The notes: generated from the sequence alone by a model not told the origin. Counted from the first letter of the stretch, positions 4,496 through 21,164 are shown. The stretch: 64,000 nucleotides of DNA from an uncultured Coriobacteriia bacterium (GCA_963768865.1 CAVYJL010000008.1:139580-203579); one strand, 5' to 3'. Numbers and translations: made by a program.

Positions 4496-4573
4496 GCCCT
4501 CGTAGCTCAGAGGATAGAGCGGTGGTTTCCTAAACCATGTCTGTCGCAGGTTCGAATCCTGCCGGGGGCACCA
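4496..4573 (+). tRNA. tRNA-Arg (anticodon CCT), CCA encoded
   Basis: Cloverleaf folded by hand: acceptor GCCCTCG/CGGGGGC, D stem GCTC/GAGC, anticodon stem GTGGT/ACCAT with loop TTCCTAA (U33, CCT, A37), T arm GCAGG-TTCGAAT-CCTGC, discriminator A, CCA. The variable region is 7 nt, which is unusually long and may itself contain an indel. Confidence 0.85.
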
Positions 4574-14887: not shown

Positions 14888-15778
14888 CTACTCCTTGGGC
14901 TTGCGCGCCGACACCGCCACGCTCGCGAACGAGGTCGCGGCGGCCTCGAGCTCGGCCCGGCTCGCGCCGGTGGACTTGGCGAACTCGGCGATGAGGTCCT
15001 CGGCAAGGACGTCGTTGACGCTGAACGTCTGCTTCTTGGTCACGGTCACGTCGGTGAATCCCGCGCGCTCGATCGCGCCGAGGTAGTCGTCGAGCTGGGC
15101 CGCTCCGGCGAGGCAGGCCACGTAGGCCTCCACGGAGGTCAGGATCGCGTCCGGCACCGGCCCGAGCAGCACGATGTCGGAGACGCTGAGGCGTCCGTCC
15201 GCAGCGAGCACGCGGAAGGCGTCGCGGAAGACGGCACCCTTGTCGGGCACCAGATTCACCACGCAGTTGCTGATGACGGCGTCCGCCGTGCCGTCGGCCA
15301 CGGGCAGGTGCTCGATCTCGCCCAGCCGGAACTCGACGTTGGTGATGCCGGCGTCGGCCGCGTTGCCGCGCGCCCGGTCGAGCATCTCCGGTGTCATGTC
15401 CACGCCTATAACGCGGCCGGCCGGTCCCACGCGCCGGGCCGCGAGGAAGCAGTCGATCCCGGCGCCGCTGCCCAGGTCCACGACGGTCTCGCCCTCCTTG
15501 AGCTCGAGCATCGCGAGCGGGTTGCCGCACCCCAGGCCGAGGTCCGCCCCTTCCGGGATGGCGGCGAGGTCGGCCGCGTCGTACCCGAGCGCCTCGCTTG
15601 CCGAGGAGGTCGTCGCCGCGCCTGCGCCCCCGCAGCCGCAACCCGCGGTGGAGGCGGCCGCCTTCGCGGAGCCGAGCGTCGCTGCGCCCCCCGACGGTCC
15701 GCAGCACGACGTGCCCTGCGTCACGTGGCCGGCGTAGCGCTCCCGCACGGCGGTCTTGATGTCCTGATCCTCATGCAT
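14888..15778 (-). CDS. arsM: Arsenite S-adenosylmethionine methyltransferase ArsM
   Basis: N-terminal Cys pair (TSCCGPSG), further CGCG cysteines, SAM motif VVDLGSGAGID, the conserved VISNCVVNL, and the ArsM-type C-terminal domain. Confidence 0.9.
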   Translation of the reverse strand: MHEDQDIKTAVRERYAGHVTQGTSCCGPSGGAATLGSAKAAASTAGCGCGGAGAATTSSASEALGYDAADLAAIPEGADLGLGCGNPLAMLELKEGETVVDLGSGAGIDCFLAARRVGPAGRVIGVDMTPEMLDRARGNAADAGITNVEFRLGEIEHLPVADGTADAVISNCVVNLVPDKGAVFRDAFRVLAADGRLSVSDIVLLGPVPDAILTSVEAYVACLAGAAQLDDYLGAIERAGFTDVTVTKKQTFSVNDVLAEDLIAEFAKSTGASRAELEAAATSFASVAVSARKPKE

Positions 15779-15921: not shown

Positions 15922-15943
15922 CTTGTCAACCCCGGAGTCGTTC

Positions 15944-16339
15944 ATGCCCGCTGAATCGCAGAACACCGACCGGATGGACCTCGTCTTCCGTGCTCTGGCG
16001 TCCAAGCCCAGGCGTGAGATCCTGCGCGTGCTGGCCACGTCCGGCGCCCCCGGCGGGACCTCGTGCTGCTCGGGCGATGAGGTCTGCGCCTGCGATCTCG
16101 TGGAGAAGCTGGGCCTGTCGGCGCCCACGGTCTCCCACCACATGAAGGCGCTCATCGACGCGGGGCTCGTCACCGCCCAGAAGCGCGGACTGTGGGTCTA
16201 CTACGCGCTGCGCGCAGACACGGTTGCCGAGGTCGCCACGGAGCTCATGTCGCTCGCCGGCTGCTCGCCCGGGCCGTGCGTGCCCGCGAGCCCGGTACCG
16301 GCCTCGGCCACGACCGGGGACTCAGAAGCGACGTCATGA
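15944..16339 (+). CDS. arsR: ArsR/SmtB family metalloregulator
   Basis: wHTH with a metal/As(III)-binding cysteine cluster ([13 protein letters not shown]) and the recognition helix [15 protein letters not shown] 15944 is preferred over TTG 15923. Confidence 0.9.
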
Positions 16340-16731
16340 CGGCTCTGGCTGCCCTGAAGGAGCGGGCACGGGCGCTGAAGCGGGAGACCTACGCTCTGTA
16401 CCTTGCGGCGCGCGACCCGGGGACACCCTGGTACGCGAAAGCCGTGGCCGTAGCCGTCGTCGCCTACGCGGTGAGCCCCATCGACCTGATCCCGGACTTC
16501 ATCCCGGTACTGGGCTACCTGGACGATCTGATCTTGCTCCCCGCCGGGATCGCGCTCGCGATCAAGCTCGTGCCGGCCGAGGTCCTTGCCGAGTGTCACG
16601 GCCGCGCCGACCGGGCCCTGGAGACGGGCGCCGCGGGAGGTCGCACGGCGGCGGTCGTGGTCGTCGTCATATGGGTGACCCTTGGCGCGCTCGTGGCCGC
16701 CTGGCTCATCACGAGACTCCGGCCCGGGTAG
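16336..16731 (+). CDS. DUF1232 (YkvA-like) membrane protein
   Basis: Signature [28 protein letters not shown]. Its ATG overlaps the arsR stop (ATGA). Confidence 0.8.
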
Positions 16732-16884
16732 CCGGCGAGGCGCCTCGCCTCGCCTCGGCAACGAGCTTTACACCGTACAGCGGCGGCGCCGTGGACATGA
16801 CGCCCGGAGCTTCAGGGTTGCCCCGCCGGGTATACCGAGCCTACAATGGCCGGTGCGCCGTTGGCGCGATTTGACAACACGAAG

Positions 16885-17070
16885 ATCTCATCCGTTAGGC
16901 GCGGCTCCTGTCGCGAACACAGGCCACTGCCCGGAAATGTCGAGAGACGCCAATGGGTAGAACAGCCCTCGCCGGCTTAAGGCGAAGGCTAAGGTGGCTG
17001 GCCCCGGACCTCCCTGAGGCGGGACTACCTACGTCCGACAGTGCCAAAACCGATGACGAGGGACGAGATC
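16885..17070 (+). promoter_or_regulatory. M-box (ykoK-type) Mg2+ riboswitch aptamer
   Basis: Block-by-block match to the B. subtilis mgtE leader as I remember it: GTTAGGCGCGGCTCCTGT, CTGCCCGGAAATGTCGAGAGACGCCAATGGGTAGAACAG, TTAAGGCGA, GCTGG and ACAGTGCCAAAACCGATGACGA. P1 is formed by CTCATCC / GGGACGAG. Confidence 0.9.
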
Positions 17071-17163
17071 GATGCGGTGCAGGACAGGCCTCGGGTCTGC
17101 TTCGCCGCGTCTTGGTGCGCTCGGGGTCCGGCCAATGGCCGTGGCCGCGCCGCGCCGCTCTCT

Positions 17164-17212
17164 GACGACCCCTCGTCCCGGCACTGAAGCCTGATGGACC
17201 TGGGGTCTTTTC
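17164..17212 (+). terminator. Candidate M-box expression-platform terminator
   Basis: GACCCC (17167-17172) pairs with GGGGTC (17202-17207) and is followed by TTTTCG. CTCGTCCC (17172-17179) is complementary to the P1 3' strand GGGACGAG, which allows an antiterminator alternative. The long loop makes the fold uncertain. Confidence 0.35.
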
Positions 17213-17423
17213 GTGTCGTCGGACCTGTAACCGATCGAAGAGGACTCGATGTATCACAGTCGCTAGGTCCCGGAGCCTCCCATGCGTGACAGCTGTCCGG
17301 CTCCAGGGACCATGACCCGACGGGACCCCGCCGTATAGGCCGGTCCCGTGAGCTCGACCCGACAGCTATCGGCCGGCGCGGACGCTCGATGCGGCCGCGA
17401 ACGGAACGCATACGGAGGATGCC

Positions 17424-19304
17424 ATGCTCTACCTCACCCGCATGGTGGGCAAGCCGGTGGTGGACGCCGCCGGAACGGAGATAGGGACCATACGCGACGT
17501 CGCCATCGCGACCGGGGAAGTCTTCCCTCGCGTGACTTCGCTCGCCTTCACCGGGCCCGACAAGACGCCCTTCATGCTGTCTTGGCGCAAGTACGTGGAG
17601 TCTGTGGACCCCGACAGGATCGCGCTCAACGCCGCCCGCCAGGACCTTCGCTTCAGCTACCAGCAGCCCGACGAGGTCCTGCTCGCGCGTGACCTGCTCA
17701 ACAAGCAGATCGTGGACACGCAGGGCATGAAGGTCGTGCGCGTGAACGACCTCAAACTCGCGGAGTCCCGCAACCAGCTTCGCCTCCTGGGCGCGGATGT
17801 GGGAGTCACCGGGCTTCTGCGCGCGCTGTCCCCCGCGCTCGAGCGCGCGGCCGTGAGCCTGTCCAAGGCAGTGGGACGCCCGCTCAAGGAAGACCTCATC
17901 GCCTGGAACTACATGGACCTCCTCGACCGCGACCTGTCGCAGGTGCGTCTGTCCGTCACCCACAAGCGCCTGCACGAGCTGCACCCCGCCGACATGGCCG
18001 ACATCCTCGAGCAGCTCACGCCTGCTCAGCGCGCGGCCGTCTTCAGCCAGCTGGACATCAACCAGGCGGCCGAGACCATGTCCGAACTCGAAGACGAGTA
18101 CCAGGCCGAGGTCGTGGACGACCTGGACAACGAGCGCGCCTCGGACATCTTGGAGCTCATGGACCCCGACGACGCGGCGGACGTCGTGGGCGACCTGCCC
18201 TACACCAAGGCGGAGCAGCTGCTCAGGCTCATGGGCGTCAAGGAGCAGGCTCAGATCAGGGCGTTGCTCGGCTATCGGGACAAGACCGCCGGCGGCATCA
18301 TGACCTCCGAGGTCACCACGGTCACGCCGGAGATGAGCGTGGCGCAGATCATCGAGTACCTGCGCGGCGAGGCGTCGGAGTTCGAGAACATCTACTACGT
18401 CTACGTGGTGGACGAGTCTCGCCACCTGCTCGGCGTCGTCTCGCTGCGCGACCTCGTGGTCGCCCAGCCCAACACATGCATCGAGTCCGTCTACAAGCGC
18501 GACGTGATCACCGTGGACCCCGACGACGACCAGGAAGAGGTCGCCGACACGATGTCCAAGTACGACCTGCTCGCGCTCCCGGTCGTGGACGAGAGCGGCG
18601 TGATCTTGGGCATGGTCACGGTCGACGACGCATTGGACGTCATGGAAGAGGAGTCTGCCGAGGACCTCGCACTCGCGACGGGATCCACGGAGACGTTCGA
18701 TCCCACGGGCGGGATCTGGAAGTGGGTGGGCCGCCACGGATGGCTCTGGGTCTGGATCCCGCTCGGGGTCTTCGCCGCACTCCTGGCGCGCTATCAGTCG
18801 TTCGTGCGCAGCACCGGAGCGTTCGGTGCGGCACCGGGCTTCCTCATCGTGGCGACGCTGAGTCTGCCGCTGCTCGTGCTCGCGCCGGTACTCCTGCGTT
18901 TCTCCGAAGACATCGCCGCACGCACCGTGGCGCGGCTCATCGAGGAGTCCGACGAGGAAGAGGTGCCGGCCTGGTGGTTCACCCTGGGCTCCGACGCGCT
19001 GGGTGGACTCGTACTGGGCGTGATCCTGGCAGCCATCGTGTTCGTTCTCGTGGAGCTCACCAACTATGGGACCGCGCTCCAGTCGATGGGAGGCGCAGGC
19101 GTGATCGCCGCGGTCAGCGGCCTGACGGTGCTGCTCGTCGCGGTTGCCGGCACCGCCGTGGGCGGATGGGCCCGCTGGATGACCGGACGCGACCGTCGCG
19201 TCTCGGCCAGCATGGTCTACATCGTCCTCATGGCTGTGGCCGCCGTCCTCTACGCCGCTCTCGCGATGGTCGCGGTCGTCGCGGCATACCCCTACCCGCG
19301 CTAG
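17424..19304 (+). CDS. PRC-barrel + MgtE-N + CBS-pair protein with a divergent C-terminal membrane domain
   Basis: N-terminal PRC barrel (LTRMVGKPVVDAAGTEIGTIRDV; NKQIVDTQGMKVVRVNDL). The MgtE_N helices follow (HPADMADILEQLTPAQRAAVFSQL..DDAADVVGDLP), then two CBS motifs (IMTSEVTTVTPEMSV..; VITVDPDDDQEEV..LPVVDESGVILGMVTVDDALDV). About 5 TM helices at the C-terminus do not look like the canonical MgtE pore. RBS is ACGGAGGA. Confidence 0.75.
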   Translation: MLYLTRMVGKPVVDAAGTEIGTIRDVAIATGEVFPRVTSLAFTGPDKTPFMLSWRKYVESVDPDRIALNAARQDLRFSYQQPDEVLLARDLLNKQIVDTQGMKVVRVNDLKLAESRNQLRLLGADVGVTGLLRALSPALERAAVSLSKAVGRPLKEDLIAWNYMDLLDRDLSQVRLSVTHKRLHELHPADMADILEQLTPAQRAAVFSQLDINQAAETMSELEDEYQAEVVDDLDNERASDILELMDPDDAADVVGDLPYTKAEQLLRLMGVKEQAQIRALLGYRDKTAGGIMTSEVTTVTPEMSVAQIIEYLRGEASEFENIYYVYVVDESRHLLGVVSLRDLVVAQPNTCIESVYKRDVITVDPDDDQEEVADTMSKYDLLALPVVDESGVILGMVTVDDALDVMEEESAEDLALATGSTETFDPTGGIWKWVGRHGWLWVWIPLGVFAALLARYQSFVRSTGAFGAAPGFLIVATLSLPLLVLAPVLLRFSEDIAARTVARLIEESDEEEVPAWWFTLGSDALGGLVLGVILAAIVFVLVELTNYGTALQSMGGAGVIAAVSGLTVLLVAVAGTAVGGWARWMTGRDRRVSASMVYIVLMAVAAVLYAALAMVAVVAAYPYPR

Positions 19305-19314
19305 GAAGCCGGCC

Positions 19315-20580
19315 GTGACCCCCGCGTCCAAGATCAGGAAGACCCTGTCCACACGCAGGACCGCCTTCATGGCGGGCCTCGCCGTGCTCGGCCCAGGCAT
19401 CATCGCGGCCTCGGCAGGTAACGACGCCGGCGGAATCTCCACGTATTCCGCCGCGGGCGCGCGCTTTGGCTACCAGATGCTGTGGATGATCTTCGTGATG
19501 ACGTTCTCGCTGGTCATCGTGCAGGAGATGGCGGCGCGCATGGGCGCCGTCACGGGCAAGGGCTTTGCCGCGCTGATCCGCGAGCAGTTCGGCGTGAAGC
19601 TGGCGTTGTTCGCGATGTTCTGCCTGCTCGCGAGCAACGCCGCGACGAGCGTGGCCGAGTTCGCAGGCGTGGGCGCTTCGTTGGAGCTGTTCGGCATATC
19701 CAAGTACATCTCGGTGCCAGTGATAGCGATCGTGGTTTGGGTGCTCGTCACCCGCGGCAACTTCAGCGCCGTGGAGAAGGTGCTCCTGGCGTTGTCGGCC
19801 GTGTTCTTGAGCTACATCATCGCAGGGTTCATGGCCAAGCCGGACTGGGGCACCGTCATCAAGGCCACGTTCATCCCGCAGTTCACGTGGTCGGGGCCGT
19901 TCGTGTCGCTGGTGATCGCGACGATAGGCACGACCATCGCGCCTTGGATGCAGTTCTTCGTCCAGAGCAACATGGTGGACAAGGGCGCGACGGTGGAAGA
20001 GCTCAGGCTGCAGCGGGTGGACGTCGTGGGCGGCGCCATCTCGGCCAACGTCGTCGCGTGGTTCATCATCATGACCACAGGAACGGTGCTCTACCCGGAG
20101 GGCATCAAGGCCACGACGGCCACCCAGGCGGCGCAGGCGCTGGCGCCGCTGGCGGGGCAGTTCGCGACGGTGCTGTTCGCCGTGGGGCTCTTCGGCGCGT
20201 CGATGCTGGCTGCCGCGGTGCTGCCTCTGACCGCCGCCTACGCGATCTGCGAGGCGTTCGGGTGGGAGGCCGGCGTGAACAGGTCGTGGTCCGAAGCCCC
20301 CGCGTTCAACATCATCTTCACCTTCGTCATCTTCTTCGGCGCCGCGGTGATCCTGATCCCCAACGTGAACCTCGTCGGGATCATGATCTTCTCGCAGGTC
20401 ATCAACGGCGTTCTCCTGCCGTTCCTGCTCATCTTCATGATGCTGCTCATCAACGACCGCCGCCTCATGGGCGAGCACGTGAACGGACGCGTCTACAATG
20501 CGATCTCGTGGGCCACGATCGTGGTCGTGCTGGGCCTGTCCGTCGTGCTCATCGTCATGACCGTCCTGGGTATGGCCTAG
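19315..20580 (+). CDS. NRAMP/SLC11-family transporter of the NRMT (NRAMP-related Mg2+ transporter) type
   Basis: NRAMP fold (GPGIIAASAGNDAGGISTYS..MLWMI..QEMAARMG). TM1 reads DAGG instead of DPGN, and TM6 reads TTIAPW instead of A..MPH. These are the N->G, A->T and M->A substitutions I recall as diagnostic of NRMTs. Confidence 0.75.
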   Translation: MTPASKIRKTLSTRRTAFMAGLAVLGPGIIAASAGNDAGGISTYSAAGARFGYQMLWMIFVMTFSLVIVQEMAARMGAVTGKGFAALIREQFGVKLALFAMFCLLASNAATSVAEFAGVGASLELFGISKYISVPVIAIVVWVLVTRGNFSAVEKVLLALSAVFLSYIIAGFMAKPDWGTVIKATFIPQFTWSGPFVSLVIATIGTTIAPWMQFFVQSNMVDKGATVEELRLQRVDVVGGAISANVVAWFIIMTTGTVLYPEGIKATTATQAAQALAPLAGQFATVLFAVGLFGASMLAAAVLPLTAAYAICEAFGWEAGVNRSWSEAPAFNIIFTFVIFFGAAVILIPNVNLVGIMIFSQVINGVLLPFLLIFMMLLINDRRLMGEHVNGRVYNAISWATIVVVLGLSVVLIVMTVLGMA

Positions 20581-20582
20581 GC

Positions 20583-21164
20583 ATGAACGCGAACGATCCC
20601 AAGCGTGAGCTCCGCTCCACCGTGCGCGCCGCACGGGCCGGGCTCTCCTCTTCGCAGCGCGAGGCGGCCGCGGACGCGGTGGCCGAGCGGGCCTCGGCGC
20701 TGCCTGAGACCGCGGGCGTGCGTGTGGTCCTGGGCTACCACGCCCTTGCCGAGGAGCTGGACCCCGCGCCGCTGCTGGAGACGCTGCGCGCTCAAGGCGC
20801 GCGGGTCGCGCTCCCGCGCGTGGCCGGTGAGGGGATGCTCACGTTCCACTGGGTCGATGACCCTGCCGCGCTCGTGACGGGGTCGATGGGCATCATGGAG
20901 CCGCGCGCCGGCTCGCCGGGCCCCGAGCTCGAGGAAGTGGACCTCGTCCTGGTGCCGGGGGTGGCCTTTGACGAGCGCTGTTGCAGACTGGGTTTCGGCG
21001 GTGGCTTCTACGACCGGCTCCTGGCCGAGCTGCCGGCGCGCACGGCGCTCGTGGGCCTCGCCTACGACGTGCAGATAGTCCCCGAGATCCCGATGGCGGA
21101 GCACGATCGCCCCGTGCACATGATCGTCACGCCCAGCGGCGTCTACCGGTCAGCTAGGGGCTAG
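20583..21164 (+). CDS. 5-formyltetrahydrofolate cyclo-ligase
   Basis: Family motifs LRSTVRAAR.., LVLVPGVAFDERCCRLGFGGGFYDR and DRPVHMIVTP. Confidence 0.85.
   Translation: MNANDPKRELRSTVRAARAGLSSSQREAAADAVAERASALPETAGVRVVLGYHALAEELDPAPLLETLRAQGARVALPRVAGEGMLTFHWVDDPAALVTGSMGIMEPRAGSPGPELEEVDLVLVPGVAFDERCCRLGFGGGFYDRLLAELPARTALVGLAYDVQIVPEIPMAEHDRPVHMIVTPSGVYRSARG

Follow-up and report, generated by a model that had tools for sequence, protein, structure and literature searches.

An M-box riboswitch ahead of an MgtE-like gene and an NRMT-type transporter gene in an uncultured Coriobacteriia bacterium

Operons that combine an M-box riboswitch with the gene of an Nramp-related Mg2+ transporter were described by Shin et al. 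in 2014 (PMC4072509). M-boxes were sought there upstream of non-Mg2+ transporters, which led to Nramp-related genes; the clade was named NrmT, and both riboswitch function and Mg2+ transport were demonstrated. Most members of this group adjoin a gene homologous to MgtE's cytoplasmic domain (the 'mgtE-nramp operons' of Fig. S5 in PMC4072509), and cytoplasmic feedback regulation or a chaperone role was speculated for this MgtE fragment. Here we analyse a locus of this kind at positions 16,885 to 20,580 of a 64,000-nucleotide (nt) stretch of DNA, called the window, from an uncultured Coriobacteriia bacterium (GCA_963768865.1 CAVYJL010000008.1:139580-203579). It consists of an M-box aptamer, a gene for an MgtE-like protein (gene 1) and a gene for an NRMT-type transporter (gene 2), and positions are counted from the first letter of the window.

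The closest described systems are the operons of the Clostridium acetobutylicum Ca_c0685 type (PMC4072509). They share with the window the M-box, the gene for an MgtE cytosolic domain, co-directional with nrmT and lying directly upstream of it, the Nramp-related Mg2+ transporter, what appears to be a single transcription unit, and regulation via terminator formation. The partner described by Shin et al. is small, consists of the cytoplasmic domain only and is split in two in C. acetobutylicum, whereas that of the window has 626 residues, comprising a PRC barrel, a candidate second one in tandem and a five-helix membrane domain that is degenerate. The window leader carries about 215 additional conserved nucleotides after the terminator, and the host belongs to the Coriobacteriia instead of the Clostridia and Deltaproteobacteria that dominate the 2014 set. 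This locus adds a well-preserved member to the operon type published in 2014, from an uncultured environmental lineage of the Coriobacteriia. The original prediction, made from the window sequence, had taken the arrangement for an undescribed one and the riboswitch for independent support of Mg2+ as the substrate. The first claim is superseded by the 'mgtE-nramp operons', and since Shin et al. found NrmT through M-boxes, the second repeats their published argument and is not new independent support. In the literature searched since 2014, no later paper on the function of the MgtE-like gene beside NRMT was found.

The second close relative is EleNRMT of Eggerthella lenta (Ramanadane et al. 2022, PMC8806188; structure 7qia), an uncoupled uptake carrier for Mg2+ and Mn2+ with a Km for Mn2+ of ~120 uM. 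Its threonine T224 is needed for Mg2+ transport and much less for that of Mn2+. The paper is silent on a partner gene and on a riboswitch (PMC8806188).

The riboswitch and the transporter

The main elements of the locus are the following.

16884..17070, + strand: M-box (Mg2+) riboswitch aptamer, full-length match to RF00380
17424..19304, + strand: gene 1, 626 residues, with PRC, PRC-like, MgtE_N, a CBS pair and a degenerate five-helix MgtE membrane domain
18711..19286, + strand: membrane domain of gene 1 (residues ~430-621), a predicted pseudo-pore (AlphaFold2 model, profile alignment)
19315..20580, + strand: gene 2, NRMT-type SLC11 Mg2+ transporter (by homology), 421 residues
20583..21164, + strand: 5-formyltetrahydrofolate cyclo-ligase gene (Pfam PF01812, E 6e-42)

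The aptamer matches the Rfam covariance model RF00380 over its full length (model positions 1-169 of 169) with 124.6 bits and an E-value of 1.8e-27, against a gathering score of 44 bits. By this match the element is a true M-box aptamer, and a response to Mg2+ is predicted. The M-box that had been proposed ahead of a two-gene unit thus passed the covariance-model check.

Gene 2 starts 10 nt past the stop codon of gene 1 and encodes a protein with a strong match to the Nramp family (Pfam PF01566, E 5e-96), as had been claimed for it. Its best match in the Protein Data Bank (PDB) is EleNRMT (7qia, E 2e-142), while the Mn2+ Nramps score around 1e-29 (best MntH 2.5e-29); the gene 2 product and the EleNRMT construct share 57.4% identity across 399 residues. 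The helix 1 motif reads D37-A38-G39-G40 and the helix 6 motif T206-T207-I208-A209-P-W211, replacing the D-P-G-N and A-x-x-M of canonical Nramps. In the alignment, D37, G40 and T206 correspond to D55, G58 and T224 of EleNRMT, and A209 occupies the position that is methionine in Mn2+ Nramps. The DAGG/T..A signature read in the original prediction is therefore borne out by the residue mapping, and the canonical DPGN is not present. The helix-10 glutamine (Q361, equivalent to Q379) and the helix-3 glutamate (E115, equivalent to E133) are shared as well. Two positions of helix 6b that hold histidine in Mn2+ Nramps are W211 and N219, so that the proton-coupling residues are lost in gene 2 as in EleNRMT. 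Judged from the alignment, every EleNRMT binding-site residue tested by Ramanadane et al. is kept. Gene 2 would thus be a relative of EleNRMT of orthologue grade, for which Mg2+ transport is predicted by homology. We make the riboswitch and NRMT assignments with high confidence.

A physiological role of gene 2 in Mn2+ import, with a riboswitch that senses Mn2+ or the general divalent-cation status, was also considered. EleNRMT does transport Mn2+, and the partner-associated NrmT of A. capsulatum rescued a Mn2+ defect. Against this stand the conservation of T206, the equivalent of a threonine required for the transport of Mg2+ but not of Mn2+, the Mg2+ proficiency of those NrmTs that are linked to riboswitches, and the co-occurrence of the partner module with MgtA and MgtE, which are both Mg2+ systems. 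A primary Mn2+ function seems very unlikely to us.

The cyclo-ligase gene starts 2 nt after the stop codon of gene 2, and a consensus scan of 20580-20900 gave no terminator-like site. The same order of NRMT and cyclo-ligase genes occurs at two related loci (L081, L089) and on the contig of P0007. The cyclo-ligase gene may be the third gene of the riboswitch-controlled operon.

The MgtE-like partner

The product of gene 1 contains a PRC domain (residues 2-66), an MgtE_N domain (186-286; PF03448, E 1e-26) and two CBS domains (E 3e-23), and the AlphaFold2 model places five helices between residues 439 and 621. This agrees with the predicted architecture of MgtE_N and a CBS pair behind a PRC barrel, with about five transmembrane (TM) helices. 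Residues 84-127 give a second PRC match below threshold (Pfam E 0.004). The AlphaFold2 model (mean predicted local distance difference test score 68.9) has low confidence at residues 77-126 and 155-181, so the second barrel is suggested by the sub-threshold Pfam match only.

The cytosolic part aligns with MgtE of Thermus thermophilus (E 6e-50), and the ligands of the Mg2+ sites, numbered according to PMC5882242, can be followed one by one. E258 of site Mg2 corresponds to E413, D259 of Mg3 to D414, D91 and D247 of Mg4 to D249 and D402, D226 and D250 of Mg5 to D381 and D405, D95 of Mg6 to D253, and E59 of Mg7 to E217. In this alignment all six cytosolic Mg2+ sites of MgtE are retained in gene 1. 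Across the family alignment of 27 sequences (A1), six of the eight residues are invariant; D381 is conserved in at least 90% of the members, and E217 is variable (D or L in some). It is plausible, given these ligands, that the protein acts as a Mg2+-sensing partner.

The membrane domain presents another picture. With 209.8, the score of gene 1 against TIGR00400 lies below the equivalog cut-off of 232.75, and the match is limited to model positions 18-299 of 450, the cytosolic two-thirds. The pore domain PF01769 gives no match in the gene 1 product even at an E-value of 10; weak matches were obtained in 15 of the 27 family members (best 3e-6). A profile of the C-terminal region has as top matches only TM-domain structures of MgtE (8h5e, 4u9n and 4u9l; E 0.004), collinear over all five helices, and with Foldseek the gene 1 model aligns with full-length MgtE over about 450 columns. 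In the profile alignment with 8h5e and 4u9n, R-F-S-E-D-I-A-A-R stands where MgtE has the TM2 motif G-T-G-G-N-T-G-N-Q, and M603 is found opposite D432, the pore ligand of TM5. The original prediction that these helices do not look like the MgtE pore needs correction: the pore domain is not recognised by its Pfam model, but the helices are homologous to those of MgtE in a degenerate form.

In the membrane region no more than 8 of 211 columns are invariant, compared with roughly half in the rest of the protein. Identity to the family is typically 27-37% there (46-72% for the three closest members), compared with 66-92% over residues 1-415. The PRC region is conserved as strongly as the sensor domains. 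By these alignments the membrane domain is a degenerate MgtE pore under relaxed constraint. Judged by the cut-offs, D432 and the GGNxGxQ motif, the gene 1 product does not qualify as an MgtE channel, and its N and CBS domains carry the sensor sites of MgtE. With T. thermophilus MgtE (2yvx, 4u9l) it has in common the N domain, the CBS pair, the plug region, the five-helix topology and the six ligand sets. It differs by about 180 additional N-terminal residues (PRC and PRC-like), by the loss of the pore aspartate and of the TM2 glycine/asparagine motif, and by scores below the pore cut-offs.

It could be argued that gene 1 is nevertheless a working Mg2+ channel, a divergent PRC-extended MgtE, and that the operon encodes two Mg2+ importers in parallel. 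The collinearity with full-length MgtE in sequence profile and predicted fold would fit this, relatives of gene 1 carry the database annotation 'magnesium transporter', and PRC-extended proteins with a true MgtE pore do exist (P0258, 395 bits against TIGR00400). The score below the cut-off, the replaced pore residues and the few invariant columns described above speak against a channel, and so does the reduction of the membrane domain to one helix in E. lenta and to none in many relatives that still stand next to NRMT. A channel function of gene 1 is considered highly improbable.

An exact-sequence look-up of gene 1 matched no recorded contig, and the source organism is placed through relatives from environmental Coriobacteriia metagenome-assembled genomes (MAGs). 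More than 120 clusters show the full architecture at an identity of at least 57%, mostly in MAGs of Coriobacteriia. In a scan of one genome per species, at least 593 of 600 candidate stretches encode a relative of gene 1; 80 loci were kept, and the NRMT gene lies directly downstream in all 80. Altogether 169 loci were fetched. NRMT directly follows the gene 1 relative in each of the 162 informative ones, the other seven being short (2.5-4 kb) with little DNA 3' of gene 1. The pairing of MgtE_N-CBS and NRMT genes is hence tight and conserved.

One of these loci (L118:1559-4274, from a human gut metagenome) is of the E. lenta type. Its NRMT has 438 residues, of which 399 align with the thermostabilised PDB construct at 97% identity, and the partner gene ends 4 nt upstream of EleNRMT. 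The gene order is that of the window. In contrast to the window, the E. lenta locus has no M-box, and the partner is a PRC/MgtE_N/CBS protein of 464 residues with a single C-terminal hydrophobic helix instead of five. Collinsella partners keep about five helices. Proteins of ~410-450 residues that match residues 1-407 and do not contain the membrane domain dominate the cluster representatives at 50% identity, outside the Coriobacteriia. Three such proteins were looked up, and an Nramp gene with the motif NDAGG follows the soluble partner at all four readable loci. The membrane domain of the partner is thus variable, with five helices, one helix or none; in the Coriobacteriia the partner is membrane-tethered, as far as predicted helices indicate. 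Given the linkage at 162 of 162 loci and the distant loci with soluble partners, the PRC/MgtE_N/CBS and NRMT pair is a widespread module.

The partner module also occurs fused to other Mg2+ importers. In seven independent clusters (P0124, P0274-P0279; 1265-1318 residues) it forms the N-terminus, 60-64% identical to residues 1-408 of the window gene 1, and is followed by a complete P-type ATPase. The ATPase part reaches 1078 bits against TIGR01524 (cut-off 611 bits), which is equivalog grade for a magnesium-translocating ATPase. The clusters come from NCBI, JGI, ENA and Logan (public metagenomes). The MgtA fusion is accepted because of the seven independent clusters, the four sources and the complete domain order; no description of it was found in the literature searched. 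In the Riflebacteria protein P0258, the module is an N-terminal extension of an equivalog-grade MgtE. With fusions to MgtA and MgtE and the pairing with NRMT, the module therefore travels with three classes of Mg2+ importers, and this association suggests that it is a regulator of Mg2+ transport.

Three other candidate fusions of the Collinsella-type module, P0301 (module and Nramp), P0302 (module and half of AcrB) and P0319 (MatE and module), were rejected as Rosetta-stone evidence, each occurring as a singleton on a single contig. In P0301 an internal deletion has joined the two genes of a Collinsella pair, and P0302 carries only half of an RND domain. All three are most likely assembly chimeras or a strain-specific deletion.

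Four further proteins of 749-781 residues (P0131, P0300, P0303, P0304) carry the module with a C-terminal extension of ~330 residues. In the two that were scanned (P0131, P0304), the extension gave no Pfam match. It may be another kind of membrane domain on the module.

The leader

The leader was compared by alignment and folding in a set of 13 related leaders, the window included; a metagenome scan, which returned mainly gut Coriobacteriia, had added four usable ones. Its elements are listed in order.

16818..16847, + strand: predicted promoter-like site, TTGCCC / 18-nt spacer / TACAAT (consensus scan)
16871..16886, + strand: 5' box UUGACAACACGAAGA, adjoining the 5' side of the aptamer, conserved in 13 of 13 leaders
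17055..17067, + strand: P1 3' strand GACGAGGGACGAG, also the predicted antiterminator strand, complementary to 17167-17179
17071..17160, + strand: variable GC-rich hairpin insert between aptamer and terminator (leader alignment and folding)
17167..17216, + strand: predicted intrinsic terminator GACCCC..GUCC / GGAC..GGGGUC, then UUUUCGUGU (folding, leader alignment)
17206..17222, + strand: 3' box UCUUUUCGUGUCGUCGG, which overlaps with the U-tract and shows complementarity with the 5' box at 16871-16886
17240..17266, + strand: Shine-Dalgarno-like GAGGA and mini open reading frame (ORF) ATG TAT CAC AGT CGC TAG (MYHSR and stop), a putative ORF in 13 of 13 leaders
17266..17311, + strand: predicted hairpin GGUCCCGGAGCC...GGCUCCAGGGACC (RNAalifold), whose first base is the last one of the mini-ORF stop codon

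The terminator hairpin itself spans 17167-17207 and is directly followed by the U-tract. The 71-nt segment 17155-17225 that contains it folds at -26.6 kcal/mol. The hairpin was found in 12 of the 13 leaders, and in the thirteenth (L091), missed by the search pattern, the same motif is apparent by eye. The sequence of its inner stem varies between leaders with base pairing maintained. Within the P1 3' strand, GACGAGGG (17055-17062) has its complement, CCCUCGUC, in the terminator 5' arm, giving an antiterminator of 8 bp. Besides the window, 11 of the other 12 leaders have this complementarity, L091 again being missed by the pattern. The terminator had originally been regarded as a weak candidate, and a consensus pattern scan indeed picked up its 3' half only; the alignment and folding argue instead for a well-formed, conserved element. 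The P1 3' strand would take part either in P1 or in an antiterminator competing with the intrinsic terminator, which makes this, by its complementarities, a standard M-box OFF switch.

The window shares with the M-box of Bacillus subtilis ykoK (mgtE) the aptamer family and the logic of an OFF switch in which an antiterminator formed with the P1 3' strand opposes a terminator. It differs by a variable hairpin insert of ~95 nt that separates the P1 3' strand from the terminator 5' arm, by a 5' box that can pair with the U-tract region, and by a mini-ORF module after the terminator. The insert differs in length and sequence between leaders and folds as hairpins inside the antiterminator helix.

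The 3' box spans the U-tract plus the following 10 nt. In 11 of 13 leaders its duplex with the 5' box is calculated at -12 to -17 kcal/mol. The remaining two are L081, where the regular expression mislocated the 3' segment, and L093, with -9.1 kcal/mol. The pairing is register-specific: 86.5% of the cells in the alignment are paired, against at most 58% when the boxes are slid along each other. Covariation is not significant, both boxes being too conserved for statistical support, and in two leaders matched length differences of 2 nt are apparent by eye in both boxes. This helix is possible only in read-through transcripts.

The mini-ORF of the window lies at 17249-17266. An ORF of five to six codons, with a purine-rich motif a few nucleotides upstream, is found in all 13 leaders. 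In nine other leaders its peptide is V-x-P-x-S-P-stop, and both proline codons differ at the third position only. Proline-rich leader peptides are known from Salmonella mgtA and mgtCBR, and the VxPxSP mini-ORF resembles them. In the hairpin behind it, 86.9% of the cells are paired and five of ten pairs have changes on both sides, which is moderate support from the alignment. A search of 17060-17430 against Rfam at a permissive E-value gave no match, and the post-terminator module is not a described RNA family.

A small ORF in such a leader has a parallel in Mycobacterium tuberculosis, where the pe20 Mbox with the upstream ORF rv1805A is a translational, Rho-dependent platform (D'Halluin et al. 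2026, PMC12810186). Both leaders are long and contain an actinobacterial M-box and a conserved small ORF; the pe20 Mbox has no intrinsic terminator, whereas the window has a conserved one and an ORF of only five to six codons. The main control of the operon could accordingly be translational or Rho-dependent via the mini-ORF and not by intrinsic termination. In addition to the precedent within the Actinomycetota, the occurrence of the mini-ORF with its Shine-Dalgarno-like motif in 13 of 13 leaders, the third-position variation at the two proline codons in nine of them and the hairpin that begins at the stop codon would fit such a mechanism. On the other hand, a canonical terminator/antiterminator is conserved 5' of the mini-ORF, the peptide differs between the two clades (MYHSR and VxPxSP), and the conserved nucleotides of the mini-ORF could reflect RNA structure. 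Control via the mini-ORF in place of termination appears clearly unlikely.

The distance from the aptamer end to the gene 1 ATG is 353 nt in the window, in accordance with the ~350 nt of the original prediction. It ranges from 254 to 375 nt across the first nine leaders aligned, and the long leader is therefore a lineage trait. Most of the 13 leaders have a TACAAT-like -10 hexamer at a comparable distance 5' of the aptamer. The M-box itself is present in every sequence of the environmental lineage with enough upstream DNA (the window, L001, L081 and L083-L093, with a truncated match in L082). It is absent from ~150 loci of gut Coriobacteriia (L002-L080 and L094-L169; Collinsella, Eggerthella, Slackia and others), which keep the gene pair. 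Among the loci examined, the M-box is restricted to the environmental lineage. Several Eggerthellaceae have instead a tRNA gene ~190-370 nt upstream.

The genes upstream of the riboswitch are unrelated to it. They encode a SAM (S-adenosylmethionine)-dependent methyltransferase (14888-15778, - strand), a divergent ArsR-family regulator (15923-16339, + strand) and, between the ArsR gene and the riboswitch, a DUF1232 membrane protein (16336-16731, + strand). A tRNA gene is located further upstream, at 4496-4570 (Rfam RF00005, 62.1 bits).

Proposed regulation of Mg2+ uptake

These features are combined in a model of a Mg2+-repressed operon, in which the M-box is an OFF switch, gene 2 an importer of the NRMT type and gene 1 a Mg2+-dependent regulatory subunit. 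As a whole, we consider this model somewhat better supported than an even chance. At high cytosolic Mg2+, with P1 closed by the aptamer, the terminator hairpin (17167-17207, followed by the U-tract) would form and end transcription. When Mg2+ is low, the 3' strand of P1 (17055-17067) would be free and pair with the terminator 5' arm (17167-17179), and the polymerase would read through; the operon would be transcribed and NRMT would import Mg2+. The gene 1 product would be an MgtE paralogue and not a channel, its pore decayed to a membrane anchor and its Mg2+-sensing N and CBS domains placed behind two PRC-type barrels. When cytosolic Mg2+ rises, it would bind Mg2+ as the cytosolic domain of MgtE does, and inhibit or tune NRMT. 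The riboswitch would then stop new transcription, so that gene 1 would add a rapid post-translational feedback to the slower control by the riboswitch.

Several observations weigh against this model. When the A. capsulatum partner (Acp2976) was co-expressed with its transporter, it had no effect in the assay, the NrmTs of C. acetobutylicum complemented without their partner, and the transporter of A. capsulatum, though partnered, behaved like one for Mn2+ (PMC4072509). EleNRMT is active alone in proteoliposomes (PMC8806188). The strongly conserved PRC region has no assigned role, and the AlphaFold2 model is poor there. Finally, a simple terminator switch does not account for the ~215 nt of conserved leader 3' of the terminator. 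A gating role of gene 1 on NRMT, proposed here from sequence features, is put slightly below an even chance because the only published co-expression test was negative, with a different and probably Mn2+-transporting homologue.

The same results could mean that gene 1 does not gate transport but helps in assembly or acts as a chaperone, buffers Mg2+, senses nucleotides (ATP) with its CBS pair, or signals to another target by way of the PRC barrels. The missing effect of the co-expressed partner on complementation and the activity of EleNRMT on its own are what such functions would predict. The CBS domain of MgtE binds ATP (structure 5x9h), and the PRC region is conserved like the sensor domains with no known role in MgtE. 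However, the six ligand sets of the MgtE Mg2+ sites are specifically conserved, which points to Mg2+ sensing; the covalent fusion of the module to the MgtA and MgtE importers suggests an action on the attached transporter, and membrane tethering is retained in the Coriobacteriia. A function other than gating is regarded as rather unlikely.

The gating model can be extended beyond this operon. The PRC/MgtE_N/CBS module might be a portable Mg2+-sensing gate that controls MgtE pores and MgtA pumps in cis and, as a separate subunit tethered to the membrane, the LeuT-fold carrier NRMT in trans. The Coriobacteriia partner would then be a pseudo-channel that docks the sensor onto NRMT, and the mini-ORF and box pairing of the leader may add a second tier of control. 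This extension is tentative, and we see it as less likely than not. If it is true, the regulatory subunit native to EleNRMT was absent when this transporter was characterised.

The general picture of M-box regulation and of NRMT substrate choice is unchanged by this locus. What it adds to the operon type of 2014 is a predicted pseudo-channel partner, a partner gene next to EleNRMT, the MgtA fusions and the additional conserved leader elements. The retained sensor sites, the constant pairing with NRMT, the membrane tether and the fusions provide a testable model, with named residues to mutate, of post-translational feedback that may act on a fourth class of Mg2+ transporter.

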